Shown here piece after piece: positions 1 through 13,143 of a stretch of 13,143 nucleotides of DNA. Below the pieces are notes generated by a model, which was not told where the DNA came from, did not search any database, and worked only from the letters and a program-made list of their open reading frames with translations. Each line of letters begins with the position of its first letter. The stretch's first letter is position 1. The DNA is from a virus. Taxonomy: Duplodnaviria > Heunggongvirae > Uroviricota > Caudoviricetes. Made by a program: the position numbers and the translations under genes. The DNA lies in the IMG/VR virus record IMGVR_UViG_2617270950_000005, positions 1 through 13,143 of that record. The stretch is one strand, 5' to 3'.

Positions 1-1
1 A

Positions 2-667
2 CTTCTTAACATGCTGGATATTAAAGGAAAAATCATCACAACTGATGCGATGGGTTGCCAGAAAGATATTGCAGAGAAGATACAAAAACAGGGAGGTGAT
101 TATTTATTCGCGGTAAAAGGAAACCAGGGGCGGCTAAATAAAGCCTTTGAGGAAAAATTTCCGCTGAAAGAATTAAATAATCCAGCGCATGACAGTTACG
201 CAATGAGTGAAAAGAGTCACGGCAGAGAAGAAATCCGTCTTCATATTGTTTGCGATGTCCCTGATGAACTTATTGATTTCACGTTTGAATGGAAAGGGCT
301 GAAGAAATTATGCGTGGCAGTCTCCTTTCGGTCCATAATAGCAGAACAAAAGAAAGAGCTCGAAATGACGGTCAGATATTATATCAGTTCTGCTGATTTA
401 ACCGCAGAGAAGTTCGCCACAGCAATCCGAAACCACTGGCATGTGGAGAATAAGCTGCACTGGCGTCTGGACGTGGTAATGAATGAAGACGACTGCAAAA
501 TAAGAAGAGGAAATGCAGCAGAATTATTTTCAGGGATACGGCACATTGCTATTAATATTTTGACGAATGATAAGGTATTCAAGGCAGGGTTAAGACGTAA
601 GATGCGAAAAGCAGCCATGGACAGAAACTACCTGGCGTCAGTCCTTACGGGGAGCGGGCTTTCGTAA
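2..667 (+). CDS. ydcC: ISAs1-family (H-repeat-associated) transposase, C-terminal part; the gene starts upstream of the window
   Basis: Open frame runs from the window edge to TAA at 665-667. Translation (…[30 protein letters not shown]…[20 protein letters not shown]…) resembles Rhs-associated H-repeat / ISAs1 transposases. Its position upstream of pptA-yddH-nhoA matches the K-12 gene order as I recall it. Confidence 0.75.
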
Positions 668-766
668 TCTTGCCCTGGGCATTATTGTCGTATAAACGCT
701 TTACCGGACACATGACATTCACAATGTGTGTTAATTTTACTGACATCTTTCAAAAGGAGCGTAATC

Positions 767-1000
767 ATGCCGCACATCGACATTAAATGTTTTCCGCGTG
801 AACTGGACGAACAACAAAAAGCAGCACTTGCTGCAGATATTACCGACGTTATTATTCGTCATCTGAACAGTAAAGACAGTTCGATAAGCATTGCTCTACA
901 GCAGATTCAACCAGAATCTTGGCAAGCTATCTGGGATGCCGAAATCGCGCCCCAAATGGAGGCTTTGATAAAGAAACCTGGTTATAGCATGAATGCTTAA
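767..1000 (+). CDS. pptA: Tautomerase PptA (4-oxalocrotonate tautomerase family), 77 aa
   Basis: ATG at 767 lies 7 nt after AAGGAG. The protein begins [13 protein letters not shown], with the N-terminal Pro typical of the tautomerase superfamily. The track ORF 728-1000 starts at an upstream GTG that is probably not used. Confidence 0.85.
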
Positions 1001-1566
1001 CCCGCCGTAACACGCTTGCCGCTGGTAACAAACGTCCCAGCACCTAAATGATGCAACGTATTGAGCTTATCATCATCAAACTGCCAGCGGCCTTCGACAA
1101 ATACCCGTGCGTCTGCCGCTGCTGATACTACTTCGCCAAACAGCGTGTCGTATTCTTCTTGCGCAGAAGTCGCAGGTAGCAATCGACACTCCATCCACGC
1201 CAGACATTTTTCCTCGACCAGAGGCAAACCAAATACCGGGCCTCTCACAACCGGAATGCCATAGCAATTAAATTTATCTTCATCACGCCCCGACACACTT
1301 CCCACCGCCCACGTCCAGTTAGTTGCTGCAACGCCCGGGATAACGATGCCAAATTTACCGTTATGTTCAATCAACTCCCTGGTCCATGTCGATTTATCTA
1401 CCACAATCGCCACGCGTGGAGGTTCAAACTCCACCGGCATTGACCAGGCTGCAGCCATAATGTTACGCCGCTGGGATTGCTCATCGAAACTGGTGATCAA
1501 GACCGTTGGGCCATGATTTAACAGACGGCTGGCATGGTGTAATTCTATGGGGATGAATCGGCTCAT
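997..1566 (-). CDS. yddH: Flavin reductase-like domain protein YddH, 189 aa
   Basis: Minus-strand ORF. The internal Met ([26 protein letters not shown]…) gives the expected length. Convergent with pptA, and the two stop codons overlap. Confidence 0.8.
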
Positions 1567-1738
1567 GGTATCGCCTCGCGAAGAAGGTTTTTTTAAGCGT
1601 AGTCCGTAACGCAATAAGTAACGAAATTAACGGGATTGGCGATTTGCGAACGTGATGCATGTCCGCGATCGCACAAAATAGCCGGTGCGGCGTCTATTCC
1701 AGGTTATAAGTTGAGAAAACCACTAAGGGAAACGCCTG

Positions 1739-2584
1739 ATGACGCCCATTCTGAATCACTATTTTGCCCGTATTAACTGGTCGGGAGCTGCTGCGGTCAA
1801 TATTGATACGCTTCGTGCATTGCACCTGAAACACAATTGCACCATTCCGTTTGAAAACCTCGACGTTTTGCTGCCGAGGGAAATACAGCTTGATAATCAA
1901 TCGCCGGAAGAGAAACTGGTGATAGCCCGTCGTGGCGGTTACTGTTTTGAGCAGAATGGCGTGTTTGAGCGGGTGTTACGCGAGCTGGGGTTTAACGTTC
2001 GCAGCTTGTTAGGGCGCGTAGTGTTATCAAATCCGCCAGCATTACCGCCGCGCACCCATCGTTTGCTGTTGGTGGAACTGGAAGAGGAAAAATGGATTGC
2101 TGATGTCGGTTTCGGTGGGCAGACGCTAACCGCGCCGATTCGTTTAGTTTCCGATCTCGTGCAGACCACGCCACACGGAGAGTATCGGTTGTTGCAGGAG
2201 GGGGATGATTGGGTGTTGCAGTTTAATCATCATCAGCATTGGCAGTCGATGTACCGTTTTGATCTCTGCGAGCAGCAACAAAGCGATTATGTGATGGGCA
2301 ATTTCTGGTCGGCGCACTGGCCGCAGTCGCATTTTCGCCATCATTTGCTGATGTGCCGCCATTTGCCGGACGGCGGCAAGCTGACACTGACCAATTTTCA
2401 TTTTACCCATTATGAAAATGGGCACGCGGTGGAGCAGCGAAATCTACCGGATGTGGCGTCATTATATGCTGTGATGCAAGAACAGTTTGGTCTGGGCGTG
2501 GATGATGCGAAACATGGCTTTACCGTGGATGAGTTAGCGCTGGTGATGGCGGCGTTTGATACGCACCCGGAGGCGGGAAAATAA
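1739..2584 (+). CDS. nhoA: Arylamine N-acetyltransferase (N-hydroxyarylamine O-acetyltransferase), 281 aa
   Basis: 281-aa ORF preceded by AAGGGA. It carries the NAT-family catalytic Cys context (RRGGYCFEQN) and matches the expected gene order after yddH. Confidence 0.9.
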   Translation: MTPILNHYFARINWSGAAAVNIDTLRALHLKHNCTIPFENLDVLLPREIQLDNQSPEEKLVIARRGGYCFEQNGVFERVLRELGFNVRSLLGRVVLSNPPALPPRTHRLLLVELEEEKWIADVGFGGQTLTAPIRLVSDLVQTTPHGEYRLLQEGDDWVLQFNHHQHWQSMYRFDLCEQQQSDYVMGNFWSAHWPQSHFRHHLLMCRHLPDGGKLTLTNFHFTHYENGHAVEQRNLPDVASLYAVMQEQFGLGVDDAKHGFTVDELALVMAAFDTHPEAGK

Positions 2585-2595
2585 TTTATGTCAGG

Positions 2596-2630
2596 TTGCC
2601 GGATGCGGCGTAAACGCCTTATCCGGCATA
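2596..2630. repeat. REP (repetitive extragenic palindromic) element in the nhoA-yddE intergenic region
   Basis: GCCGGATGCGGCGTAAACGCCTTATCCGGC is the classic enterobacterial REP consensus shape. It is flanked by the inverted pair TGTCAGG (2589-2595) and CCTGACA (2650-2656). Confidence 0.6.
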
Positions 2631-2679
2631 CATTAGCCCGGTTGTAGACCTGACAGGCGAAGCGCATCAGACAACGGTT

Positions 2680-2865
2680 TCAGAGTTCAATTGCCCATTC
2701 GGCATGAAACAAAATCACCGCTGTGCCTGAAATGGTGACTTTTTCCGGTTGGTTATCACGAATTGTCACCGTCACTTCAATCATACCGTCACGCCCCAAT
2801 GCGCGCCCCTGATGGCCTTTAACACGCAACACGTTGCCATCGTGGGGCAATTGTAACCAGGTGAA
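2680..2865 (-). pseudogene. yddE: 3' remnant (C-terminal ~62 codons) of PhzF-family isomerase gene yddE, truncated by the prophage insertion
   Basis: Minus-strand frame ending at stop (TCA on plus strand, 2680-2682) translates to …FTWLQLPHDGNVLRVKGHQGRALGRDGMIEVTVTIRDNQPEKVTISGTAVILFHAEWAIEL. This has the G-x-I-x-V-x-V … G-x-A-V pattern of PhzF/YddE C-termini. The frame hits a stop at 2866-2868 where prophage-like sequence begins, with no start codon or N-terminal part. Confidence 0.6.
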
Positions 2866-3101
2866 TCATTTGATACCAACGAGGGTTTTAGTGAAAGGAG
2901 GTGAAATCACCTGTAAGATACTGAAATAAAACAGGTGATGTCTGGATGAGCGCTTAAAGTCTATTTGATATCGATTGTGCAATAATTAATCGTTTATTCT
3001 AAAATCGGCAAAACTTTTGATACTGCGATCTCAACTTTTTAAAGCGTTTAAAACTTCATTAAATCTATATGGCAACTAACATACGGGCCAGCCTCGCCAA
3101 A
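2866..3101. repeat. Putative prophage left-end (attL-like) region with repeated candidate transposase-binding motifs
   Basis: TTTGATAYY occurs three times (2869-2877, 2964-2972, 3016-3024), spaced 95 and 52 bp, similar to the L1/L2/L3 layout of Mu attL. A perfect palindrome AGGTGAAATCACCT lies at 2899-2912 and CAGGTGA recurs at 2932-2938. Confidence 0.35.
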
Positions 3102-3632
3102 CTAACCCGCTTTAGATTCTACCGGATTTGATTGCCTACTTGTCTCGGTTTTTTCCAAAATCTCTCTGACGCAATCGTCTGGCATATCTACAATCATCAA
3201 CGCAGCCAGGCGCTTCCTGCCTTCTAGTTGTAATAAATCCTGGTTTTCTTTATTCAGCAGTGTCAGAACCGTCTCCACACCTTTGCGAGCAAGGAGATTG
3301 GTTAACTGTTCTCGTTCGTCTTTCGTAAGGAATGAAAGCATCTGTGTAAGCTGATCTCCCTTATCACCAGAACAACCAAAATTACCATAAATACCAATAT
3401 CGTTTGGTAATTCACCCTTGCCCTCTTTAAGCCACTCAAGACTAACGCCTTCACTTTCAGAAATTCGTATAAGGATACTTTCTCTGGGGGCTGGTTGTGT
3501 TTGTCCTCCCTTGAAATAGCTGTTTAATGTGTTGATATTGATTCCCCACGCTCTGGCAGCTGCACTTCTTGAAGGGTAGCGCTTTGTAAGCATTCCAATA
3601 CGTTCAATAACAGGTTCTTTTCCCTGCGACAT
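3102..3632 (-). CDS. c: Mu-type repressor (c-like), about 176 aa
   Basis: Leftward ORF divergent from ner, the same position as Mu c. Start taken at ATG (CAT 3630-3632) with AGAGGT 6 nt upstream; the longer track ORF reaching 3707 is an unsupported N-terminal extension. N-terminal region (RIGMLTKRYPSRSAAARAWGININTLNSYFKGG) looks like an HTH. Confidence 0.65.
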   Translation of the reverse strand: MSQGKEPVIERIGMLTKRYPSRSAAARAWGININTLNSYFKGGQTQPAPRESILIRISESEGVSLEWLKEGKGELPNDIGIYGNFGCSGDKGDQLTQMLSFLTKDEREQLTNLLARKGVETVLTLLNKENQDLLQLEGRKRLAALMIVDMPDDCVREILEKTETSRQSNPVESKAG

Positions 3633-3707
3633 AAAGATACCTCTTGGTGCTTTTCTAAGGAAAGGTTTCTTTCTATTTATCCAATTGAAAAATAAGGATA
3701 AAAGCAA

Positions 3708-3822
3708 AAATTAGCCAAAATACCAAAAATACCTTGATTTGGTATTTTTGGTGATGCATTATTTACCCGTACAGATATCCGCACGAATATCCGCGCGGGT
3801 AACTTTTTAGAATAGAGGAAGT
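3708..3822. promoter_or_regulatory. Divergent early promoter/operator region between repressor and ner
   Basis: CCAAAATACC at 3715-3724. Inverted repeat CCAAAAATACC (3723-3733) / GGTATTTTTGG (3741-3751). Tandem 12-bp direct repeats GATATCCGCACG (3774-3785) and AATATCCGCGCG (3786-3797) just upstream of ner. TTGATT at 3734-3739 is a possible -35. Confidence 0.55.
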
Positions 3823-4071
3823 ATGAGTAGAAGAGAAGTTTCAGATCACGATTGGCCGCCTGAAATCATCAAGGCGCGCTTACACATGGCTGGCTTATCA
3901 CTGCGCTCTTTATCTTTAAAGGCTGGTTACAGCAGGGATTCGCTGAAAAGCGTATTACGTACTCCTTGCCGACCGTATCAGCAAATAATTGCTGATGCTC
4001 TTGGGGTATCACCTGAAGAAATCTGGCCCAGTCGATACCAGGTTAAGAGCTATATGAGAAAGGCGTCATGA
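3823..4071 (+). CDS. ner: Ner-like DNA-binding transcriptional regulator, 82 aa
   Basis: Protein has Ner/Nlp family hallmarks (…QIIADALGVSPEEIWPSRYQ…). AGAGGAAG RBS. Sits immediately upstream of the transposase gene as in Mu. Confidence 0.85.
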   Translation: MSRREVSDHDWPPEIIKARLHMAGLSLRSLSLKAGYSRDSLKSVLRTPCRPYQQIIADALGVSPEEIWPSRYQVKSYMRKAS

Positions 4072-4072
4072 T

Positions 4073-6163
4073 ATGTATGTCATTGCAAAAGAACTGATTG
4101 GCGCGCCCGGAATGCCTGCTACAACAAAAGGTATTCGCCAGGCATTACAACGTTACGTACAAGGGAAAAGCTGTTGTTCCCGTCGTCGCTCAGGCTCTAA
4201 AGCAACTGAATACAGCATCGACTGTTTACCTGAAGTGACGCAGCAGGCATTACGTGAACGCTACGCCCTGCAACTGATGACGCAAAAAGCCGATGAATCA
4301 CCGGCTCCGGTGGTGACAAAGGCCAGACGCTCACCTGCCGTGGTTGATGCGGTGGAGGCATATCGCGGATCACCCCAACTGATGGTCGAACGCCTCAATG
4401 CCCTGACTGAAAACCAACGTAAAGTGGCAGAGGCACGAATAGCGATCGTCAGCGAGGTGCTGAAAATCGCGCAACAACCCGGCTTTAGTTGCGCTAAGGC
4501 TATCCGGTTCCTCGTTAACAGCCTGGCACGATCACAACTGGACGAGCGCATTGTGGCAATGGTTGAGACGGCGAACGCCAAAAAGGGAAACAGCCGCGCG
4601 TTGAGTGAAATCACGCTGAAACGCTGGATTGCGGCCTTTAACAAGGCACAGAACGCCGCTGAACGCCTGCTTTTACTGGCACCGGGTAAACGCCAGGAAA
4701 TAAAAGCCGAAGATATTAACTGGCTGCCCGAATTTCTGGCGCAGTATCGCCAGTCAAACGGCCGACCAATGACCGAGGCTTACGAGGATTTTGTTGCTGA
4801 ATGGCAGCACCGGCACGCTGATGAGCCTTATATGCTCGATATCATGCCCTCTTATGACACCATTCGCCGCGCAATGAAGAAACTGCCGGAAGTGGTGAAA
4901 CAAAAAGGCCGGGTAACTGGCAGTGAATACCGTCAGCTTGAGGGATTCACGCGCCGCGACTGGTCCAGAATGCCGGTGAATTATGTCTGGATTGGTGACG
5001 GTCACGGCATGAAGCTGAAATGCGCGCACCCGGTTCACGGGCGGCCATTCGCACCGGAAGTGACCTTTGTTATCGACGGTGGCACGCGCTTTGTGGTGGG
5101 CTGGAGTCTTGACCTGGCTGAAAATGTTTTCGCCGTAGCCGGTGCCATACAGCACGGTATTCGCCATCATGGCAAACCGTTTCTGTATTACTCGGATAAT
5201 GGCTCCGGGGAAACCGCCGACGTCCTGGATAAGGAGATTGTGGGGATACTGCCACGACTGGGGATTAATCACCCGACAGGGATTGCCGGTAATCCGCAGG
5301 GACGGGGCATTATCGAACGGCTTAACCGCACATTACCGATGCGCATAGCCCGTAAATACCGCACCTATTTCGGGAAAGGAGCAGATCGCGAGACGTTACG
5401 TAAAACCAACCGCGATTTACGCTCGGCATTCAGTGCCCTGCAACAGGGCAAACGGCTGAACGCCCGGCAGCAGTCAGCGATGCGTGATTTACCGTCCTGG
5501 TCTGAACTGATTGATGCCATTCGTGACGGTGTTGAGTGGTACAACAACCGGCCGCACGATGAATTACCCATGAAGCCGAACGGTAAACATTACAGCCCGG
5601 CGGAGTTCAGAAAAAAACGCCTGGCGGAAGAGGACACGGAAATTGAATGGCTGTCCGATGTTGAACTGCGGGATATGTTCCGGCCGATGGTGGAGCGCCC
5701 TGTAAGACGCTGTGAAATACGCTGGCTGAATAATATTTACTACGCGCCCGAGCTGCGTGACGAGCATGGCCGTAAGGTACTTATCAGCTATGACATTCAT
5801 GATGCCGAACGAATTACCGTGCGCCGCCCGGATGGCAGCGTGATTTGCGAGGCGGTATGGGACGGCAATAAACGCGAAGCCTTCCCTGTCAGCGCGGAAT
5901 ACTACAAACAGCAGCAGCGCCTTAAAGGCATGCGTAAACGCGCAGAGGAAAAAATCCGTGATGCCGAGGATGAGGTTGTCAACGTGCTGGAGCACAAGCC
6001 GCAGGAGCCCTGGCTGGAAAACATATACCGCCCTGTGGGTAATACGGTGACCGTTCAGCAACCGGTCGCTGACGATGAACCTGATGAAGAATACGAGCGT
6101 AATTTCCAGCGGGGATTGCAACTGCTCGAAGCGAAATTAAAAGAAAGTGATCCGCTGGCCTGA
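4073..6163 (+). CDS. A: MuA-like DDE transposase, 696 aa
   Basis: Large ORF with candidate DDE residues in WIGDGHGMK, YYSDNGSG and GIIERLNRT contexts. Size and position match Mu transposase A. Confidence 0.9.
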   Translation: MYVIAKELIGAPGMPATTKGIRQALQRYVQGKSCCSRRRSGSKATEYSIDCLPEVTQQALRERYALQLMTQKADESPAPVVTKARRSPAVVDAVEAYRGSPQLMVERLNALTENQRKVAEARIAIVSEVLKIAQQPGFSCAKAIRFLVNSLARSQLDERIVAMVETANAKKGNSRALSEITLKRWIAAFNKAQNAAERLLLLAPGKRQEIKAEDINWLPEFLAQYRQSNGRPMTEAYEDFVAEWQHRHADEPYMLDIMPSYDTIRRAMKKLPEVVKQKGRVTGSEYRQLEGFTRRDWSRMPVNYVWIGDGHGMKLKCAHPVHGRPFAPEVTFVIDGGTRFVVGWSLDLAENVFAVAGAIQHGIRHHGKPFLYYSDNGSGETADVLDKEIVGILPRLGINHPTGIAGNPQGRGIIERLNRTLPMRIARKYRTYFGKGADRETLRKTNRDLRSAFSALQQGKRLNARQQSAMRDLPSWSELIDAIRDGVEWYNNRPHDELPMKPNGKHYSPAEFRKKRLAEEDTEIEWLSDVELRDMFRPMVERPVRRCEIRWLNNIYYAPELRDEHGRKVLISYDIHDAERITVRRPDGSVICEAVWDGNKREAFPVSAEYYKQQQRLKGMRKRAEEKIRDAEDEVVNVLEHKPQEPWLENIYRPVGNTVTVQQPVADDEPDEEYERNFQRGLQLLEAKLKESDPLA

Positions 6164-6171
6164 AATAAAAA

Positions 6172-6199
6172 AATAACCCGAGGGGTGACTCAGGTTATT
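6172..6199 (+). other. Stem-loop in the A-B intergenic region
   Basis: AATAACCCGAG (6172-6182) pairs with CTCAGGTTATT (6189-6199) at 10 of 11 positions across a 6-nt loop, 9 nt after the A stop codon. Confidence 0.25.
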
Positions 6200-6245
6200 T
6201 GAGGTTTCAGTCTCGGAGAATGCTGTCTCAAGCGAGGTGAATAAT

Positions 6246-7178
6246 ATGACCGATATTAACGATGTAATCAAGACCATTGATGAACTTATTGATGGCGGCG
6301 TACTGACGCAGTATGCCATCGCCAGAGAGGCGGGAATTTCCGACGGCACATTATCGGCTTTCCGTAAGGGAAAATATAAAGGCGATAACGCTGCTGTGGC
6401 TGCTTCCCTGCGCTCCTGGTATGAGAACTGGAATAAACAAAGCGCACTGCCGGAACCGCCGCAGTTTGTGGAAACTCAGACAGTCCAGGAGCTGCGCGCA
6501 CTGTTTCAGGCGGTTCGCCTGATGGGCTGTATTAACGTTATTGTGGGCGTACCGGGTGTGGGTAAAACGGCCACTGCCCGTAATTACTGCCAGGAGCAAC
6601 CAAACACCTGGATGATCACCCTGTCACCCGCGCACTCCAGCGTCACGGAGTGTCTGCTGGAGCTGGCCGATGCGCTGGGGATTGATTACACCCGCGCGAA
6701 CAAAGGGGCATTATCCCGCGCCATCCGCCGTCGCCTGATGGGAACGCGTGGACTGGTGATTGTGGATGAGGCGGATCATCTTGGTATTGACGGTCTGGAG
6801 CAACTCCGGGCAATTCAGGACGCCACGGGGATCGGGATGGTGCTTATTGGTAACCCGCGCGGATTGTTTAAAGGTGGACGCCGCGCCTTTGATGATTTAT
6901 CGCGCCTGTTCAGCCGTCTTGCCCGTACAAAACAACTTCGCAAGGCCAAAAAGGCGGATGTGCTGGCCATTGCCATGGCGTGGGGGATCAGTGGTGAGGC
7001 CGAGCTGGCCGTCATGCAGGCTATCGCTGAAAAGCCGGGAGCGTTACGCGTTCTGACACATACGCTTAACCAGGCGTGGCTCACCGCCAGCGGTGAAGGC
7101 GCGGCGCTGACAGAAAAACATATTAATGCGGCCTTTAAAGAGGTTTATACCAACCCTGAATTACTCTCACAGGTGTGA
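6246..7178 (+). CDS. B: MuB-like AAA+ ATPase (transposition target-DNA activator), about 310 aa
   Basis: Walker A GVPGVGKT and Walker B-like LVIVDEAD. N-terminal HTH-like region. Start moved to ATG 6246 just after GAGGTGA; the track start at 6237 is a GTG inside the RBS. Confidence 0.9.
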   Translation: MTDINDVIKTIDELIDGGVLTQYAIAREAGISDGTLSAFRKGKYKGDNAAVAASLRSWYENWNKQSALPEPPQFVETQTVQELRALFQAVRLMGCINVIVGVPGVGKTATARNYCQEQPNTWMITLSPAHSSVTECLLELADALGIDYTRANKGALSRAIRRRLMGTRGLVIVDEADHLGIDGLEQLRAIQDATGIGMVLIGNPRGLFKGGRRAFDDLSRLFSRLARTKQLRKAKKADVLAIAMAWGISGEAELAVMQAIAEKPGALRVLTHTLNQAWLTASGEGAALTEKHINAAFKEVYTNPELLSQV

Positions 7179-7180
7179 TT

Positions 7181-7402
7181 ATGGCGGTATTTAATATTCC
7201 TGATATTTACGGACGCTTTTACCTGGTTAATTTCGATAACGTGAAGGTGATTTCACTGGCCGAAAATAAAGAATGTGGCGATTTACTTTTTGAATTTAAT
7301 GACCGCACACGAATGGTGATATCTGCCGGACTTGATCGCGAAGGTGCGACAGAAGTTTACAGCGGAATATGCCGTTCTGTTGGTGCGAAACAAGTCAGCT
7401 AA
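7181..7402 (+). CDS. Hypothetical small protein (73 aa) in the position of Mu kil
   Basis: ORF starts right after the B stop and shares the early operon orientation. No recognisable motif. Confidence 0.5.
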   Translation: MAVFNIPDIYGRFYLVNFDNVKVISLAENKECGDLLFEFNDRTRMVISAGLDREGATEVYSGICRSVGAKQVS

Positions 7403-7414
7403 ATGAGGTGTTAT

Positions 7415-7669
7415 ATGAATATGCAATCCTGCGGTAACAAAATGAATTTATTCGACTCCCTGAACAGCGCGCGCCGTCTGACCGAACTTGCCGGTGCGGT
7501 ACTGGAACGCAGTAAGCGCTATCCGCAACGTTTTGCACTGAAAACCACGCCGCCGGTAGGCAACGTGCAGGGAACCGGTGAAATTGAAATCACCATACAG
7601 ACCAACGGCCTGCGCCGCCGTGTGAAGGCCACCCGCATCAGCGGCTGCACGGTTTACTGGGAGGTGTGA
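7415..7669 (+). CDS. Hypothetical protein, 84 aa
   Basis: ATG 7415 preceded by GAGGTG at 7406-7411; the track start at 7403 overlaps that RBS. Packed head to tail with its neighbours. Confidence 0.5.
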   Translation: MNMQSCGNKMNLFDSLNSARRLTELAGAVLERSKRYPQRFALKTTPPVGNVQGTGEIEITIQTNGLRRRVKATRISGCTVYWEV

Positions 7670-7670
7670 G

Positions 7671-7952
7671 GTGAAAAAAAATCTCATTGCATGGGCGTGG
7701 TCGAGTGGTCTTATTGAGTTTGGTTACGTCCTGCCGGAAGGTGCATTGCCGATAGTTGCCGGAAAGCCTGCCACGGTACGGCATGTGATTGAGGTTATGG
7801 CGCGTCATGGACGTGATGAACAGGAGCAGTTACTGGTTCCGGGGATACCGGAAGCGGTGACGGAGGAAGAAGCCTTTAATGCCATGATTCGGTTCTGCCG
7901 TGAGGTCAGACGCCGGGTCAGTTATCCAAACAGAACGAGGACCAGAGGATGA
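7671..7952 (+). CDS. Hypothetical protein, 93 aa (GTG start)
   Basis: GTG 7671 follows GGGAGGTGTGAGG, 2 nt after the previous stop. No recognisable motif. Confidence 0.5.
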   Translation: MKKNLIAWAWSSGLIEFGYVLPEGALPIVAGKPATVRHVIEVMARHGRDEQEQLLVPGIPEAVTEEEAFNAMIRFCREVRRRVSYPNRTRTRG

Positions 7953-8221
7953 GTAAAGTCGTACACATTATTTTCGAATATAAGGAGCACGTTATCCATA
8001 AAAACGCTGATGGAACAGTGCGCATGGGGGTAAGTCTGGACATACGTTCAACCGGGATAAAGCAGAAAGGTGATGGACCCGCCATGATTTTTGGGGTGGT
8101 TATGCTCGCGGAAAGCAGAAACTTCGCAGAGCTTGTGGCAATGAAAGCCAGTGCATTCATGAAAGACAGGGGCATGGCTTCCGGGGTTATTAACGGTAAT
8201 GAATTTAATCAGCAGGGGTAA
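7949..8221 (+). CDS. Hypothetical protein, 90 aa; first of two tandem paralogs
   Basis: ATGA overlap with the upstream ORF. N-terminus MSKVVHIIFEYKEHVIH resembles the next ORF's N-terminus. Confidence 0.55.
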   Translation: MSKVVHIIFEYKEHVIHKNADGTVRMGVSLDIRSTGIKQKGDGPAMIFGVVMLAESRNFAELVAMKASAFMKDRGMASGVINGNEFNQQG

Positions 8222-8225
8222 TTCC

Positions 8226-8519
8226 ATGAGCAAAGTACGCGTTATTTTTGAATTTAACCACGTAATGCATGAAGTAAAGCCAGCCGGTAATGATAGTCAG
8301 GAAATCACGGAGGGGGTTACTGCCACTGTAAAAATCGAACGTGATACGGAGAACAGACCGACAGGCCCATGTGATGTTTATGCGCAAATTCTTAAATATC
8401 ACAGCCCCACAATTATTCAGTTTCTGACAGATGAACTTCAGGGTTCCATGCAGGCTCTGGGGGTGAAAAGCAGCATTGAGCGCCGCTCCTTGCAGAACGC
8501 ACCAGATACATTGCAATAA
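8226..8519 (+). CDS. Hypothetical protein, 97 aa; second tandem paralog
   Basis: Start at ATG 8226 (MSKVRVIFEFNHVMH…); the track's upstream start at 8199 overlaps the preceding ORF. Shares the N-terminal motif of the previous ORF. Confidence 0.55.
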   Translation: MSKVRVIFEFNHVMHEVKPAGNDSQEITEGVTATVKIERDTENRPTGPCDVYAQILKYHSPTIIQFLTDELQGSMQALGVKSSIERRSLQNAPDTLQ

Positions 8520-8530
8520 GGAAAAACAAA

Positions 8531-9061
8531 ATGGCAAAACGCGTTACAAAATTAAAGGCTGTAGCCGAGGCCGCACCGCAGACCCGCGAAGAAGTCAGCC
8601 GCGATATCCGCACCCTGGGCGATATTCAGCGAGAGGCGCTGCGCCTGGAAACGGCGATGAATGATGAAGTGGCAGAAATCACCGCCCGTTATACGCCGCA
8701 GATTGAAAATCTTAAAAAGCAAATCAAAGTGCTTTTTAAAGGGATTCAGGACTGGTGTAAAACCAACCGTGATGAGCTGACGAACGGCGGCAAAACCAAA
8801 ACTGCCAATCTGACCACCGGAACGGTGTCATGGCGGCTGGGAACGCCATCATGCAGCGTCAGCCGTGATGTGGAAGGTGTGATTGACACGCTGCGCCGTA
8901 TGGGGCTTGAGCGATTCATCCGCACGAAAGAGGAAGTGAACAAGGAAGCCGTCCTGGCGGAGCCGGATGCGGTGAAAGGCATTGCCGGTATAAAGGTGAA
9001 TAAAGGCGCTGAAAGTTTTTATGTCGAGCCTTTTGAACAGGATGCCGGACTGAATAAATAA
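8531..9061 (+). CDS. gam: Gam-like host-nuclease inhibitor (Ku-like DNA-end-binding protein), 176 aa
   Basis: Strong resemblance along its length to Mu Gam as recalled (…RLETAMNDEVAEI…NRDELTNGGKTKTANLTTGTVSWRL…RFIRTKEEVNKEAVL…EPFEQDAGL). Confidence 0.9.
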   Translation: MAKRVTKLKAVAEAAPQTREEVSRDIRTLGDIQREALRLETAMNDEVAEITARYTPQIENLKKQIKVLFKGIQDWCKTNRDELTNGGKTKTANLTTGTVSWRLGTPSCSVSRDVEGVIDTLRRMGLERFIRTKEEVNKEAVLAEPDAVKGIAGIKVNKGAESFYVEPFEQDAGLNK

Positions 9062-9158
9062 CACCGCATTAATTATTTAAATATCACTTCATTTTAATTA
9101 TGGCGCTCGCGTCAGGGGACTGCTTGCGCCTGAAAGCTGAAAATAAGGAATCGGAAAT

Positions 9159-9701
9159 ATGGCATATTTTTATTTCAAATTAGACCGTGTGCAGACAAAT
9201 AAATATTTCACCAAATATCAACAGGCTGTTTTACCGCTACGCAACAGTATTCTTCGGACATTACTGAAAAATACAGGCGCTGCCGGATTGCGCTTAAAGC
9301 CGTTCGCCATGGACAGAATCAGTGAGTTTTATTTTGCCGGTGCTCTGCCTGCGGGCTGGCGTAAGCGCGATGATGTGGCTTTTATCGGTGGCGGACAGTG
9401 CTTTATAGCCAGACCTGATGAGTCATGCCCTGAAGGACCGGCGATTGCCGCAATGATTGAAGCCGCTGAACGCGAGTTAAGAAAGCGTCCTGATTTCCTT
9501 GTCTGGCTCTGTGAAAAGCTGGGGGTAATGAGAATCCCCTCCATGTTTAACACGGACTCCTGGTGGACCCCTTCGTTCTCCCGTGATGCCCTGTGCGTGG
9601 TGTTTAAAGTGGGCGCTTATGGCAGGGGAATAAAAGGATGTATTCCTGAAGAATGCCAGGAAATTAAACATTCTGAATATGTGGCGCTGACGGAGGAATA
9701 A
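9159..9701 (+). CDS. Hypothetical protein, 180 aa (accessory ORF A)
   Basis: ORF follows AAGGA and the only sizeable intergenic gap (97 bp) in the early operon. AT-rich 5' end. No recognisable motif. Confidence 0.55.
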   Translation: MAYFYFKLDRVQTNKYFTKYQQAVLPLRNSILRTLLKNTGAAGLRLKPFAMDRISEFYFAGALPAGWRKRDDVAFIGGGQCFIARPDESCPEGPAIAAMIEAAERELRKRPDFLVWLCEKLGVMRIPSMFNTDSWWTPSFSRDALCVVFKVGAYGRGIKGCIPEECQEIKHSEYVALTEE

Positions 9702-9704
9702 TTC

Positions 9705-10238
9705 ATGATTGATGCAAAAGTGCTTGAAGGGGTTAAAAACTGGCTGAGTATTTACGGGCGTCTGACCTGCGGCGTACTGGCTGAAAAAATGAATATGCCG
9801 CCATCCTCCATGGTTTATTTTCTGCGTGATGCGGTTGATGCCGGGGTGCTGACGGAATGTAACGGTTTTTATGATATTCCGCGTTCCCGCCCGGTGCAGC
9901 CGATTCGTCGCAAATGCAGACAGGAATCTGCGGCTGATGATGTTCAGTGGTGCAGCTTCAGAAAATCCCTGCCATGGATTGAGGGGCATGATATTCCGTC
10001 GATGGCGTGGGAATTTGCTCAGGGCGTTCTGACCTGTGAAACCGTTTATGTGGTGGCTGAAGTTGATGAGCAGGCCATGAAAGAAGGCGTGCCCCAGTTT
10101 GTGATGGCGTATATCGACATTCGCCTGGGTGTCATCATCTGCGGTTTAAGCGGCTGGAATATCACCGCGCGTGTTCTGCGCTACCTGATTGTTGACCGGA
10201 CAGCAGCGCCTGCCGGGATATCTGCGGAGGTGGCGTAA
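9705..10238 (+). CDS. Hypothetical protein, 177 aa, with possible N-terminal winged-helix DNA-binding domain (accessory ORF B)
   Basis: 3-nt gap from ORF A. N-terminal 60 aa (…GVKNWLSIYGRLTCGVLAEKMNMPPSSMVYFLRDAVDAGVLTE) has a wHTH-like pattern. C-terminal half has no known motif. Confidence 0.55.
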   Translation: MIDAKVLEGVKNWLSIYGRLTCGVLAEKMNMPPSSMVYFLRDAVDAGVLTECNGFYDIPRSRPVQPIRRKCRQESAADDVQWCSFRKSLPWIEGHDIPSMAWEFAQGVLTCETVYVVAEVDEQAMKEGVPQFVMAYIDIRLGVIICGLSGWNITARVLRYLIVDRTAAPAGISAEVA

Positions 10239-10753
10239 TGTTCTTTAAAACATCAAACCCTTCCGCGCTGGCTGCGTGGCAAAAATACCAGCAGGACTGC
10301 CAGACGGTAAAAGATGAGGCGAAACGCCTTGAGGCCGTGCTGAATGTTGCGTGCCGGTCGGTATTTGAATTCAGTATCAGTGGTTTTTGTTTTAAGGGAC
10401 TGCGTTTTACGGAGGACAAATATCCTTTTCATCGCGACTTATGGCGAAAACCGACTGCGTCGAATGGCTGGAGCTGCACACCGCGCACATCACGTATCCC
10501 TAAAGCCCTGCGTGTTGCCTCTGATGAACTGAACAGTCTGTGGCGTGAATATTCGCCCGTCACGTATGCCAGAACCGATGCCCTGTTGTTCTGGCTGGGT
10601 ATTGACTTCTCAGCAATATTGTATGGTCCCGTGAACTGGTTCTGCGTTGACAATGTGATTTATCTTCAGTGCGAAGATGATTCCGCAAAACGGAAAATGA
10701 CCGAAATTCTGTCTGATGAGTTTTATGCTGCCGAAAAGCGAGTCAGGGGGTGA
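10238..10753 (+). CDS. Hypothetical protein, 171 aa (accessory ORF C)
   Basis: TAATG stop/start overlap with ORF B indicates translational coupling. No recognisable motif. Confidence 0.55.
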   Translation: MFFKTSNPSALAAWQKYQQDCQTVKDEAKRLEAVLNVACRSVFEFSISGFCFKGLRFTEDKYPFHRDLWRKPTASNGWSCTPRTSRIPKALRVASDELNSLWREYSPVTYARTDALLFWLGIDFSAILYGPVNWFCVDNVIYLQCEDDSAKRKMTEILSDEFYAAEKRVRG

Positions 10754-10756
10754 TGT

Positions 10757-11308
10757 ATGATGATTTTACAACACATGGGGCGAAAAGGTCGTACACCCGC
10801 TCATGTCCGCGCGTGGACACCTGAAGAAGATGCGCTACTGATTGCGCTTTATTCATCCACCCCGGTTAAGGATATTGCTGCCAGAATAAAAAGAACTGTC
10901 TGGGCTGTATATAACCGGACTGGTGTATTGCGCAGTTCATACCCGGAGTTACTGAAATATAAACACCCAAGATTTACACCTGATGAAGATAAGTTTATTC
11001 GAAAAAATGCCAGAACAATGACCTGCCAGCAAATGGGAGAATATCTCGGACGTAATAAAGATTCTGTCAGATGTCGGGCAGGAATGATTGGTGCTGGATT
11101 AACAAAGTGCGGAGAGTTACGCCCCGGCACGCGCATATCTGATGATGATGTACGTCTTATACGTGCGCTGCGTGATTCCGATTACCCACGCCGTCTGTCA
11201 TTCCGGGAAATTGGCGAAAAGTTTGGAATATCTGAACATTCTGCTCACGCAGTTTATTACCGTCGCCGGACTGCCGAGGACGCTGTATTACGGGAGTTAA
11301 CGCCATGA
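10757..11308 (+). CDS. Hypothetical DNA-binding protein with three HTH-like repeats (Myb/SANT-like W-TPEED motifs), 183 aa (accessory ORF D)
   Basis: Internal repeats RAWTPEEDALLIALY…, PRFTPDEDKFIRKN…, and ISDDDVRLIRALRD…LSFREIGEKFGIS…. RBS AGGGGG before ATG 10757. Confidence 0.55.
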   Translation: MMILQHMGRKGRTPAHVRAWTPEEDALLIALYSSTPVKDIAARIKRTVWAVYNRTGVLRSSYPELLKYKHPRFTPDEDKFIRKNARTMTCQQMGEYLGRNKDSVRCRAGMIGAGLTKCGELRPGTRISDDDVRLIRALRDSDYPRRLSFREIGEKFGISEHSAHAVYYRRRTAEDAVLRELTP

Positions 11309-11634
11309 TAACGACCTTATTTGTTGAATCAGATGAACCTCTTGTGTGTGCCGCCGGAATGCCGCTCTGTGGCGGAACGCTGACCGGTGTTTATTTCGGG
11401 GATTTACGCGGTTATCCCTGGCATTCACTGAATGATGCTTTCCCACCTGATATGGAGGCTGTCGTGCTGATTGTTCAGTATGGTCACCGTCAGGAGCTGC
11501 GCATCGGCCATATGGGGTATGAAGGCTTTTTTGTTGATGAAGAAACCGGAGCCTGCCTTGAAGATGAAGACGGACAGGTGACGCACTGGTGTCATATTTC
11601 GGCTTTACCGGAATTACGGGAGGTGAATGCGTGA
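11305..11634 (+). CDS. DUF551-like phage protein, 109 aa (accessory ORF E)
   Basis: ATGA overlap with ORF D. C-terminal …DGQVTHWCHISALPE resembles the DUF551 signature (…THW.PLPEPP) common in enterobacterial prophage accessory proteins. Confidence 0.5.
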   Translation: MITTLFVESDEPLVCAAGMPLCGGTLTGVYFGDLRGYPWHSLNDAFPPDMEAVVLIVQYGHRQELRIGHMGYEGFFVDEETGACLEDEDGQVTHWCHISALPELREVNA

Positions 11635-11981
11635 GAAGTTATATTGATAATGAAAAGCTGGAGACAATAAGCGACTGTCTTAGCTTGCTGGCAAAAATCA
11701 AAGAAACTATTGAAGAGATTAAATTTCAGCTTGAATACGCACCATGTGGCGATGATGCATGGCGTAATGCTGCCAGAAAAGCACTGGCTGTCTTTCAGAA
11801 ACAACGCCGGGCTGTTGAATACCGCCTTGCTGTATTGCGCCAGGAGGAAAAGGAAAGAAATATAAGACGTCATGAACGCGTTAATGATTTCCTTGTTCGT
11901 GAATTAAAAGAGCGCGTGCCGGAGTCGGTATTTTTTGAATGTGAGGCTATAGCCCGTAGCAAAGCACTGGAAACAGATTAA
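11631..11981 (+). CDS. Hypothetical coiled-coil protein, about 116 aa (accessory ORF F)
   Basis: GTG 11631 lies 5 nt after GGGAGGTG and overlaps the ORF E stop (GTGA). The alternative ATG 11589 would overlap ORF E by 45 bp. Charged heptad-like sequence (…LAVLRQEEKERNIRRHERVNDFLVRELKER…). Confidence 0.45.
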   Translation: MRSYIDNEKLETISDCLSLLAKIKETIEEIKFQLEYAPCGDDAWRNAARKALAVFQKQRRAVEYRLAVLRQEEKERNIRRHERVNDFLVRELKERVPESVFFECEAIARSKALETD

Positions 11982-11996
11982 GCAGGCAGGTGAATA

Positions 11997-12305
11997 ATGA
12001 GTATTGAATTAAGATCGTCTTATGAATATCGCAAAATCCTTATCGCCGGAGGCATGAAACCGGAAGATGCAGAGAAATTCGTTTCTTTTATGGATAAAGA
12101 ATGTGACAAGCGGGATATGCCAGAAATTATTATGGATGACATGATTCTGGATTCAGCCGTGGCGTTAAGTCCGTTATGGATTGTGCATACTCTTGCGGAA
12201 ATAGCTAAAAGAAGTGACAAGCAGGCGGCTGTCGCCGCCCTGCGATTACTGGCTGAATTAAGTTGTTCAGTCAATCCCAATACGTTCTTTGACGAACCTG
12301 GTTAA
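11997..12305 (+). CDS. Hypothetical acidic protein, 102 aa (accessory ORF G)
   Basis: ATG preceded by AGGTGA. AT-rich. Its 3' end overlaps the convergent minus-strand ORF by 39 bp. Confidence 0.5.
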   Translation: MSIELRSSYEYRKILIAGGMKPEDAEKFVSFMDKECDKRDMPEIIMDDMILDSAVALSPLWIVHTLAEIAKRSDKQAAVAALRLLAELSCSVNPNTFFDEPG

Positions 12306-12677
12306 CATTGATTTGGTAACTTCTTTAATTAGATCAAATGGTGCGTCTGTAAACTCCTTTTTGATTCTTTCAAGGATTGGTTTTTTTCTCAGGGCGTTAG
12401 CTAAATCATGCCCCTGCTGGGTAAGCATAATGGGCGTGTTTCTGAAACCAACGCCCAGAGAATGGAAAAAGAAACCAATATATTTGGGTGTTTCTGACTG
12501 CATATCACCATTAACAATTGAGCCATTATCAGCGAGAAGCATAAGATGAAAAACTTTTTTATCCTTTTCCTCTCCTTCTGCCTCAGCCATGCCCAGATCC
12601 TGTAGTGTAAGGAAAGGTGTTTCAGCATCCTGAAAAGTTGTGAGAATACTTAATACTTCATCGTAATCTATTTTCAT
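12267..12677 (-). CDS. Hypothetical protein, 136 aa; lone minus-strand, AT-rich moron inside the rightward early operon
   Basis: Clean 136-codon ORF antisense to the early operon, with AAAGGT about 7 nt upstream of its ATG. Visibly more AT-rich than flanking prophage DNA. No recognisable motif. Confidence 0.55.
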   Translation of the reverse strand: MKIDYDEVLSILTTFQDAETPFLTLQDLGMAEAEGEEKDKKVFHLMLLADNGSIVNGDMQSETPKYIGFFFHSLGVGFRNTPIMLTQQGHDLANALRKKPILERIKKEFTDAPFDLIKEVTKSMLTRFVKERIGID

Positions 12678-12698
12678 ATCGATACCTTTAGTTTTATC

Positions 12699-12728
12699 CG
12701 GGCGGCGTTGCCATGCCGCCTGTTGTTA
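12699..12728 (+). terminator. Possible GC-rich stem-loop followed by a U-rich tract
   Basis: GGCGGC (12701-12706) pairs with GCCGCC (12715-12720) across an 8-nt loop, followed by TGTTGTTA. It lies between the minus-strand moron start and the gemA-like ORF. Confidence 0.25.
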
Positions 12729-12741
12729 CGGAGACACGATA

Positions 12742-12945
12742 ATGAATCGCGCTTCCCTGATTACCTTAATACATGTCGCAAAACGCGATCTACAGCTTGA
12801 CCATGAGACCTACACATCCGTACTACTGGCAGCCACCGGCAAACCCAGTTGCCGGGATATGTCACCGGATGAGTTATCCCGCGTGCTGGATGTTTTCAAA
12901 AAACGCGGTTTTAAAGTGCGTCAGAAGCCGGTTACCGGAATATGA
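12742..12945 (+). CDS. gemA: GemA-like (Mu gp16 / DUF1018 family) protein, short form of 67 aa
   Basis: MNRASLITLIHVAKRDLQLDHETYTSVLLAATGKPSCRDMSPDELSRVLDVFKKRGF matches the conserved N-terminal GemA/DUF1018 pattern as recalled. The ORF then stops. Confidence 0.55.
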   Translation: MNRASLITLIHVAKRDLQLDHETYTSVLLAATGKPSCRDMSPDELSRVLDVFKKRGFKVRQKPVTGI

Positions 12946-13082
12946 ATGTGCTGGATGATATTCTCACGCCGCTGCGTATTTATGAAGGCGGTGCGCTGGA
13001 ATGTATTCTGAACCGTTATAAGCCTGCATGGCAGACGTTTATTTACGTTTATGCAAACAGCCATGAAGAGGAGACTATTTAA
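12942..13082 (+). CDS. Small ORF (46 aa) coupled to the gemA-like ORF by an ATGA overlap; possibly the frameshifted continuation of gemA
   Basis: ATG 12942 overlaps the TGA of the gemA-like ORF; ends at TAA 13080-13082. Below the 60-aa cutoff of the ORF track. No motif. Confidence 0.3.
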   Translation: MNVLDDILTPLRIYEGGALECILNRYKPAWQTFIYVYANSHEEETI

Positions 13083-13143
13083 TGTTTCATGTTGATAATA
13101 ATTCCGGCGTGGCGAATATGCCTGCGCTGGCACCGGCGCAGAG
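13082..13143 (+). CDS. 5' end of a further early-operon ORF that runs off the window
   Basis: TAATG overlap with the previous ORF. Begins MFHVDNNSGVANMPALAPAQ with no stop before the window end. Confidence 0.3.
   Translation, partial: MFHVDNNSGVANMPALAPAQ

Follow-up and report, generated by a model that had tools for sequence, protein, structure and literature searches.

Why does a phage carry, side by side, two small genes whose products begin almost alike and then diverge? The question is raised by a DNA stretch of 13,143 nucleotides (positions 1 to 13,143 of IMG/VR record IMGVR_UViG_2617270950_000005; the whole stretch is called the window below), which forms the left-hand, early end of a transposable, Mu-like prophage in Escherichia coli. 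In its early (semi-essential) region, with kil on one side and gam on the other, lie two open reading frames (ORFs), here named orfA and orfB:

orfA: 7949..8221, + strand; 90 amino acids (aa), start MSKVVHIIFEYKEHVIH...; PHROGs family phrog_4107 (8e-59)
orfB: 8226..8519, + strand; 97 aa, start MSKVRVIFEFNHVMH...; PHROGs family phrog_2230 (4e-37), shared with gp7 of phage D108

An earlier note, made from the sequence alone, had described two adjacent same-strand ORFs at 7949-8519 between B and gam, and translation confirms them with the N-termini that it quoted. It had explained them as a local duplication followed by diversification under host-driven selection. Profile comparisons place orfA and orfB, as new and distant members, in a family that is known, recently named and poorly understood, that of Mu gp7 (old name E6; Gnarl2). 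That the two are paralogues and belong to this family is highly likely. The advance is useful and incremental, since a known family is extended and no new kind of system is added.

Remote homology of orfA and orfB

The direct resemblance of the two products is slight. They are 16% identical, and pairwise BLASTP returned zero alignments at E<=100. A local Smith-Waterman alignment (BLOSUM62) scored 54 against 23.4±4.2 for shuffled sequences, a score equalled in 0 of 2000 shuffles. Most of this signal is carried by the first ~15 residues; once the first 15-17 residues were dropped, the score was 30 against 21.3±3.8 and was equalled by 67 of 2000 shuffles, which is marginal. Profiles made from close homologues only gave an hhalign probability of 69-79% over the full length, which is suggestive and not decisive. 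Because the pairwise signal past the N-terminus is marginal, family profiles were needed to address full-length homology. At this level, the empty BLASTP comparison, the marginal score without the N-terminus and the assignment to separate PHROGs families are all compatible with two unrelated ORFs whose N-termini are alike by chance or through a nucleotide signal at the start codons.

The family was reached from orfB. In tblastn searches of phage genomes, orfB gave a weak match in the gp7 slot of Mu_3F6 and PhiR68_1, and its Smith-Waterman score with Mu_3F6 gp7 was clearly significant (80, z=13.7). The gp7 gene occurs in Mu, D108 and Mu_3F6 in three very different versions with the same flanking genes. 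A four-type profile was then searched against 1.84 billion representative proteins and gave 34 matches at E<=0.001, ~25 of which are diverse full-length relatives of 79-100 aa. One match from this search, P0085 (710 aa), was rejected as spurious, since its repetitive sequence was matched in 13 short stretches. The relatives were sorted into subgroups labelled A (orfA type), B (orfB type), N (MSNK... type), F (D108 and Mu_3F6 type), M (Mu gp7 type), T and Q. The subgroups other than A form a connected network in which each is joined to at least two others at 90-99% hhalign probability; the direct pairs B-M, N-M, M-Q and B-T are weak or undetectable. Family members come from Mu-like phages of Escherichia, Yersinia, Salmonella and Cronobacter, and none turned up when 42 distant Mu-like loci (Gilliamella, Haemophilus, Pseudomonas and others) were surveyed with Gam as the anchor. 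Within these data, the family is limited to phages of enteric bacteria.

The evidence that carries the homology of orfA comes from profile-profile comparison. The orfA family matched the pooled non-orfA members with 95.9% probability (P 5.8e-9) over 74 columns, covering orfA residues 5-79, with a score of 46.1; 100 column-shuffled orfA alignments scored 11.0±2.3, with a maximum of 17.8. Similarity past the first residues, on which the earlier note had made its proposal of paralogy depend, persists in this formal alignment. With the N-terminal strand cut on both sides, the probability was 85.9% and the score 30.7 against a null of 10.3±1.9, and 58 columns stayed in register. When both orfA-type and orfB-type sequences were left out of the family, orfA still matched it at 94.7-95.6% and orfB at 99.0%. 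Mu gp7 matched the pooled rest at 97.1% (P 5.5e-11) over 78 columns, with a null maximum of 15.9.

Searches with hidden Markov models (HMMs) among 3562 ORFs from 60 loci agree. An HMM made without orfA-type sequences recovered the orfA-type ORFs of full length with E-values from 1.6e-6 to 1.1e-5 and, at E 0.007, the divergent orfA-type copy of locus L049, with zero unrelated ORFs below E=1 in the whole set. In the other direction, the best non-self matches of an orfA-only HMM were members of T, N, Q and B. A further link is provided by P0097 of group T, which matches phrog_2230 (1.7e-14), phrog_10252 (0.011) and phrog_4107 (0.036). These three PHROGs hold the orfB/D108 type, Mu gp7 and the orfA type, respectively, so that a single protein spanning them is independent support for one family. 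The merging of phrog_4107, phrog_2230 and phrog_10252 into one family is, with the tandem pair, a modest addition to what was known.

By these comparisons orfB is a clear family member and orfA its most divergent branch. Homology to Mu gp7 and its relatives extends over most of the length, by way of intermediates. The position, downstream of B and kil and upstream of gam, is the one that this gene also occupies in Mu, D108 and Mu_3F6 and in 10 further contexts. The family alignment shows the N-terminal strand, then another strand, a G(P) turn and helices of amphipathic character; the AlphaFold2 models agree with it, except that the first helix is missing from the orfA model. The idea of unrelated ORFs is thereby largely refuted, as far as sequence can tell. 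The profile matches hold in register over 58-74 columns with or without the N-terminus, far above the column-shuffle nulls, and HMM searches in both directions rank the family first. In addition, among the 7 aligned N-terminal codons that specify the same residue in orfA and orfB, 3 differ synonymously, which points to constraint on the protein and not on the nucleotides. We regard unrelatedness as extremely improbable.

The predicted structures were compared as well. The AlphaFold2 model of orfB, made from an alignment of B and F sequences, has a mean pLDDT (predicted local distance difference test) of 74.6 and shows a hairpin (4-16/27-39) followed by helices at 48-58 and 60-77. The orfA model, made from its own shallow alignment, is of low confidence (pLDDT 59) and has strands at 6-18 and 24-35 and a helix at 57-73. 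The order of elements is alike in both, a beta-hairpin and then helices; the orfA model is too weak to serve as a test. Among PDB sequences, a profile search found no match at E<0.01. Matches to RraB (PF06877) were considered and set aside: D108 gp7 reaches 16.9 bits (E 0.0098), below the gathering score of 23.3 bits, and such matches occur in just 2 of 36 family members, with none for orfA or orfB.

Origin of the pair and exchange of alleles

Given this homology, does the shared N-terminus record a recent duplication? Across the family, no motif is better conserved than the strand M[AS]KV(I/V)IFEF, and it is found also in the single-copy genes of Mu, D108 and Salmonella-type phages. The further HVIH/HVMH match is seen with certain orfA alleles only; at this place the consensus of orfA reads EDVI(R/C). 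Since the motif is conserved family-wide and shared codons differ synonymously, the N-terminal likeness is best explained as the family's signature first beta-strand, kept by constraint on the protein and not by recent duplication or gene conversion. In neighbour-joining trees, orfA was placed as sister to B alone in 5 of 200 bootstraps, to B+N in 49, to M in 45, to M+T in 37 and to Q in 36, and bootstrapping did not reach a stable position for it. The identity of orfA to orfB equals that to the other subgroups (16%), and orfB is closer to the single-copy N group (28%).

These results bear on a fuller form of the earlier note's scenario: a fairly recent duplication of orfB in place, after which the copy diverged rapidly under host-driven positive selection and only the N-terminus was retained. 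In its favour, the two genes are neighbours of similar length on one strand; both begin MSKV, where other subfamilies have MAKV or MSNK; and the two-copy state is found in one prophage lineage alone. Against this stand the split placement of orfA, an identity to orfB no higher than to other subfamilies, the family-wide N-terminal strand with its synonymous codon differences, and whole-gene ratios of nonsynonymous to synonymous divergence (dN/dS) of 0.24-0.40. Because of the bootstraps and the identities, recent local duplication is not supported as the origin of the pair, and we think it improbable. Of the paralogy proposed earlier, homology over most of the length therefore stands on the profiles, and the use of the N-termini as the mark of a local duplication does not.

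How widely the pair occurs was asked next. The 571 bases of orfA-orfB match in 232 of 5426 complete E. coli genomes, O157:H7 included, and both genes are covered in 226 of these 232. The order orfA-orfB-gam is kept in 39 of 40 orfB-type IMG/VR loci and also in L002, L006, L049 and L052-54. A single copy is present in Mu, D108, Mu_3F6, strain M1, L050/51, L055-L059 and L062, and in the contexts of P0092, P0097, P0098, P0099 and P0102; in strain M1 and L062 the lone copy is orfB. The earlier note had proposed a survey of copy number and divergence in related prophages: two copies are confined to this E. coli prophage lineage, and the classes of orfB within it are ~60% identical.

This divergence is striking when set against the flanking genes. 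In the prophages compared, MuB, p73 and kil are nearly identical (synonymous divergence, dS, <=0.04), yet orfA has a dS of 0.13-0.45, and within such near-identical prophages the two orfB classes differ with a dS of 0.7-1.2 (the class comparison included the equivalents in L052, L053, L002, L004 and L006). In IMG/VR loci, class B1, which is rarer and is that of the window, accounts for 8 of 38 and class B2 for 30 of 38. Alleles of orfA are mosaics of variable segments, namely the hairpin loop at ~12-27, residues 38-43 and the C-terminal part, and orfB varies in equivalent regions. P0041 is a chimera of B1 and B2, and L054 and L002 have an identical orfA protein with different orfB classes. The very high dS between alleles indicates that old alleles are exchanged by recombination. 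Judged from these comparisons, the locus is a recombination hotspot at which old mosaic alleles are swapped under relaxed purifying selection.

Selection itself gives no support to the proposed host-driven diversification. The dN/dS range of orfA and orfB given above compares with 0.03-0.13 for gam and MuB. One near-identical orfB pair reached 0.83 with only a handful of differing sites. The whole-gene values show purifying selection, and for positive selection at individual sites the data point neither way. Thus the claim of diversification under such selection is left unsupported, and exchange of old alleles takes its place.

The second copy may have come from an ancient tandem duplication or a captured foreign allele. 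For the latter, orfA would once have been the lone gp7-slot gene of another Mu-like phage and was recombined beside a resident orfB. The slot is a recombination hotspot: its three versions in Mu, D108 and Mu_3F6 look unrelated although the genomes are otherwise similar, reassortment is seen for the classes of orfB and for segments of orfA, and the neighbours (p93 and a gp8-like gene) come and go. In addition, orfA matches the M+T clade at 90.5% in hhalign, against 46-75% for orfB. On the other side, an orfA-type gene never turned up as the sole copy of a phage: among the loci surveyed, orfB is always downstream, save in three low-quality or truncated loci. The branch of orfA is also long, and its placement varies among the bootstraps. 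Such capture is a possible origin, and a rather doubtful one.

Some loci carry altered copies. In E. coli GCA_049182865.1 (L146 1501-1704, P0059), a natural in-frame fusion joins residues 1-49 of orfA to 79-97 of orfB; it arose from a 367-bp deletion at an 8-bp microhomology (TTTTGGGG), and the joined positions are not equivalent in the family alignment. Frameshifts in orfA were found in L099 and L145 (one IMG/VR contig) and in L142, and in L099/L145 orfB and gam are frameshifted too. These reflect either pseudogenisation in decaying prophages or poor assembly.

This common E. coli lineage, with two very different copies in several allele classes, supplies a ready-made set of natural variants with which the binding targets of the family can be mapped. 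The same set permits testing allele type against host O-antigen type.

Possible function of the Gnarl2-type proteins

What the two proteins do can be approached through Mu gp7 (NP_050611.1, also Mup07, E6 or orf63), which was named gnarl2 in screens of accessory genes (Silas et al., Nat Commun 2025, PMC12373910) and belongs to the small number of early accessory genes of Mu for which a phenotype has recently been reported. When expressed, it shifted O-antigen bands downward in ECOR1 and ECOR22 and raised T5 infection 10^5-6-fold there; transposon insertions in O-antigen genes gave the same phenotype as gnarl2 (PMC12373910). Affinity purification-mass spectrometry found no clear binding partner, and the authors proposed a small non-enzymatic modulator of O-antigen biosynthesis (PMC12373910). 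The earlier suggestion of small proteins directed at the host, such as inhibitors, fits this published phenotype.

The reading favoured here, which we consider probable, is that orfA and orfB are divergent members of one Gnarl2-type family of small soluble proteins, ~85-100 aa long, with a putative role at the host surface. On the basis of remote homology to gnarl2 (15-16% identity), a more specific assignment, as early binders of host proteins acting most likely on O-antigen or lipopolysaccharide (LPS), is tentative. In this scheme each protein, non-enzymatic like Gnarl2, would probably have a host protein as its binding partner shortly after the phage is induced or infects. Altered O-antigen/LPS assembly would be the likeliest result, and hence a changed cell surface, which might for example hinder superinfection or the re-adsorption of progeny. 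Two very different versions with several alleles each would most plausibly broaden or shift the set of host variants within reach.

The likeness to Mu gp7 is one of family, size, motif and place. All three proteins join one family at the profile level (97.1% for Mu gp7, 99% for orfB and ~95% for orfA), measure 87-97 aa, and have the N-terminal strand motif and the predicted order of hairpin and then helices. All are encoded in the hypervariable slot of the kil-gam interval, in the early region of transposable phages. The differences are that no direct pairwise or subfamily-level match joins Mu gp7 to orfB, that Mu has one copy and the window two, that the phenotype is reported for Mu gp7 alone, and that gp8 and gp9 separate the Mu gene from gam, which orfB here abuts. 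Closer relatives are the hypothetical gp7 proteins of D108 and Mu_3F6/PhiR68_1. They fall with orfB in phrog_2230 (4.5e-40 for D108 gp7); both versions match orfB at 96.5-97.6% in hhalign and share the motifs MxKVIFEF, TGP.D..A.I....P.II and LG. They differ in being single-copy and only 25-36% identical to orfB.

Several points weigh against the favoured reading. The identity of orfA and orfB to Mu gp7 is remote, the direct hhalign comparison of orfB with Mu gp7 gives <1%, and that of orfA is not significant either. The link thus runs through intermediate subfamilies and pooled profiles, and function may have diverged along it. Fold searches gave no significant neighbour, and scans of orfA, orfB and family members with Pfam, NCBIfam and PADLOC gave no covering family. 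At orfA residues 49-54 the model has a low-confidence strand where orfB has a helix. Whole-gene dN/dS values below 1 offer no positive evidence for an arms race. Finally, the effect of Gnarl2 is strain-specific.

A different target, such as a host nuclease, a defence system or DNA transactions, has therefore to be weighed for the family. The family gene lies directly upstream of gam or of a DUF3164 gene in most loci, and a frequent neighbour is the p93 family, labelled 'host nuclease inhibitor' in PHROGs. Affinity purification gave Gnarl2 itself no clear partner, and gnarl2 is labelled in a Fig. 2 heatmap limited to accessory genes lethal in some, not all, hosts (10.1101/2023.04.06.535777), which groups it, in that figure, with conditionally lethal accessory genes. 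At so low an identity a change of target is also plausible. On the other hand, the sole experimental phenotype in the family is the O-antigen downshift with T5 sensitisation (PMC12373910), and neither sequence nor fold searches gave a match to a known nuclease inhibitor, to an anti-defence protein or to a component of a defence system. We consider a target other than LPS somewhat unlikely. A toxin-antitoxin pair or a defence or anti-defence component was also considered for orfA and orfB and rejected: there were zero matches in Pfam, NCBIfam and PADLOC, each protein is a homologue of the other, and genes of the orfB type are also found by themselves.

Under the favoured Gnarl2-type reading, known systems offer partial analogies. 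Gnarl1 and Gnarl3 are small non-enzymatic proteins of lytic phages that shift O-antigen bands and sensitise to T5, and Gnarl3 binds GalU (PMC12373910). Their likeness to orfA and orfB would be a functional analogy through Gnarl2; they come from other phages under other accessions. Seroconverting prophage enzymes and Iap of Pseudomonas phage D3 were drawn on as an analogy for Gnarl2 in PMC12373910, where Iap is described as a small gene that still needs two phage enzymes for seroconversion. A change of O-antigen that alters phage adsorption is a possible common outcome. Apart from Iap, the seroconverting proteins are large glycosyltransferases or acetyltransferases, in contrast to the ~10 kDa soluble products of orfA and orfB, which have no enzyme signature.

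The orfA product is basic (9.8 kDa, isoelectric point 9.2) and the orfB product acidic (10.9 kDa, isoelectric point 5.5), with zero membrane segments in either. One could imagine a heterodimer of two diverged Gnarl2 folds, with interchangeable alleles matched to the surface-polysaccharide machineries of hosts (e.g., Wzy, Wzz or WaaL variants), or else a second copy with a non-LPS target. We give these ideas little credence; if true, the heterodimer would be a modular, serotype-matching device for host takeover.

The early region and its neighbouring genes

In the window the genes run in the order MuB, p73, kil-like gene, p93, orfA, orfB and gam. The features around the pair are as follows.

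4073-6163: Mu-type transposase ORF
6237-7178: MuB (Pfam Phage-MuB_C, 7.8e-25)
7175-7402, + strand: p73, 73-75 aa, just downstream of MuB (phrog_3375)
between p73 and p93: kil-like gene (phrog_2679)
7671..7952, + strand: p93, 93 aa, upstream neighbour of orfA (phrog_1518, 3.8e-43)
7937..7952, + strand: orfA translation start region, Shine-Dalgarno-like GAGGA 7 nt upstream of the ATG at 7949 (read from the sequence)
8214..8228, + strand: orfB translation start region, AGGGG 7 nt upstream of the ATG at 8226 (read from the sequence)
8531..9061, + strand: gam, the downstream anchor (Pfam Phage_Mu_Gam, 7e-42)

The ATG of orfA overlaps the TGA stop of p93 (ATGA), a sign that the two may be translationally coupled; between the stop of orfA and the start of orfB there are 4 nt. 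An automated ORF list begins orfB at ATG 8199, within orfA, and so makes it 106 aa long. The true start is taken to be the conserved ATG at 8226, giving 97 aa, because the Shine-Dalgarno-like AGGGG precedes it as a ribosome-binding site and RefSeq homologues are annotated from the equivalent ATG as 97 aa. No promoter-like sites and no + strand terminator-like sites were found in 7000-9300. From this, and from the tight packing with neighbours, it follows that orfA and orfB are very probably transcribed as part of a long early transcript.

The p73 product contains LLFEFNDRT, which resembles the family's N-terminal motif (7175-7402 here; 2438-2659 in L004). The copy of strain M1 scored 40 with orfB in Smith-Waterman (z=4.9; 1 of 500 shuffles), and the family HMMs miss p73. 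This likeness is probably chance.

Across loci, the family gene lies directly upstream of gam or of the DUF3164 gene that replaces it. The exceptions are the Muvirus group (Mu, D108 and Mu_3F6), which has gp8 and gp9 in between, and L056, which has a p93 homologue there. DUF3164 (PF11363) stands in the place of gam in L050/L051 (4303-4941), L055 (484-1110) and L056 (719-1336), directly 3' of the gp7-family gene or, in L056, past the p93 homologue.

The p93 gene is present in 25 and absent from 12 of 37 orfB-anchored IMG/VR loci with upstream flank; its family, phrog_1518, is without a Pfam family. Homologues of p93 adjoin the gp7-family gene, on either side, in the distant Mu-like phages L050 (3732-4004), L056 (452-706), L057 (2732-3004) and L059 (2119-2373). 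It may be a functional partner of the gp7 family.

A further gene of 136-140 aa, absent from the window, is variably inserted between p73 and kil, with copies in L006 (2010-2432), L049 (3290-3709), L050 (3095-3508), L057 (2098-2508) and L146 (790-1209). The variable presence of this gene again speaks for accessory-gene mosaicism across the whole B-gam interval. In the L006 copy, the N-terminus looks by eye like that of Mu gp8.

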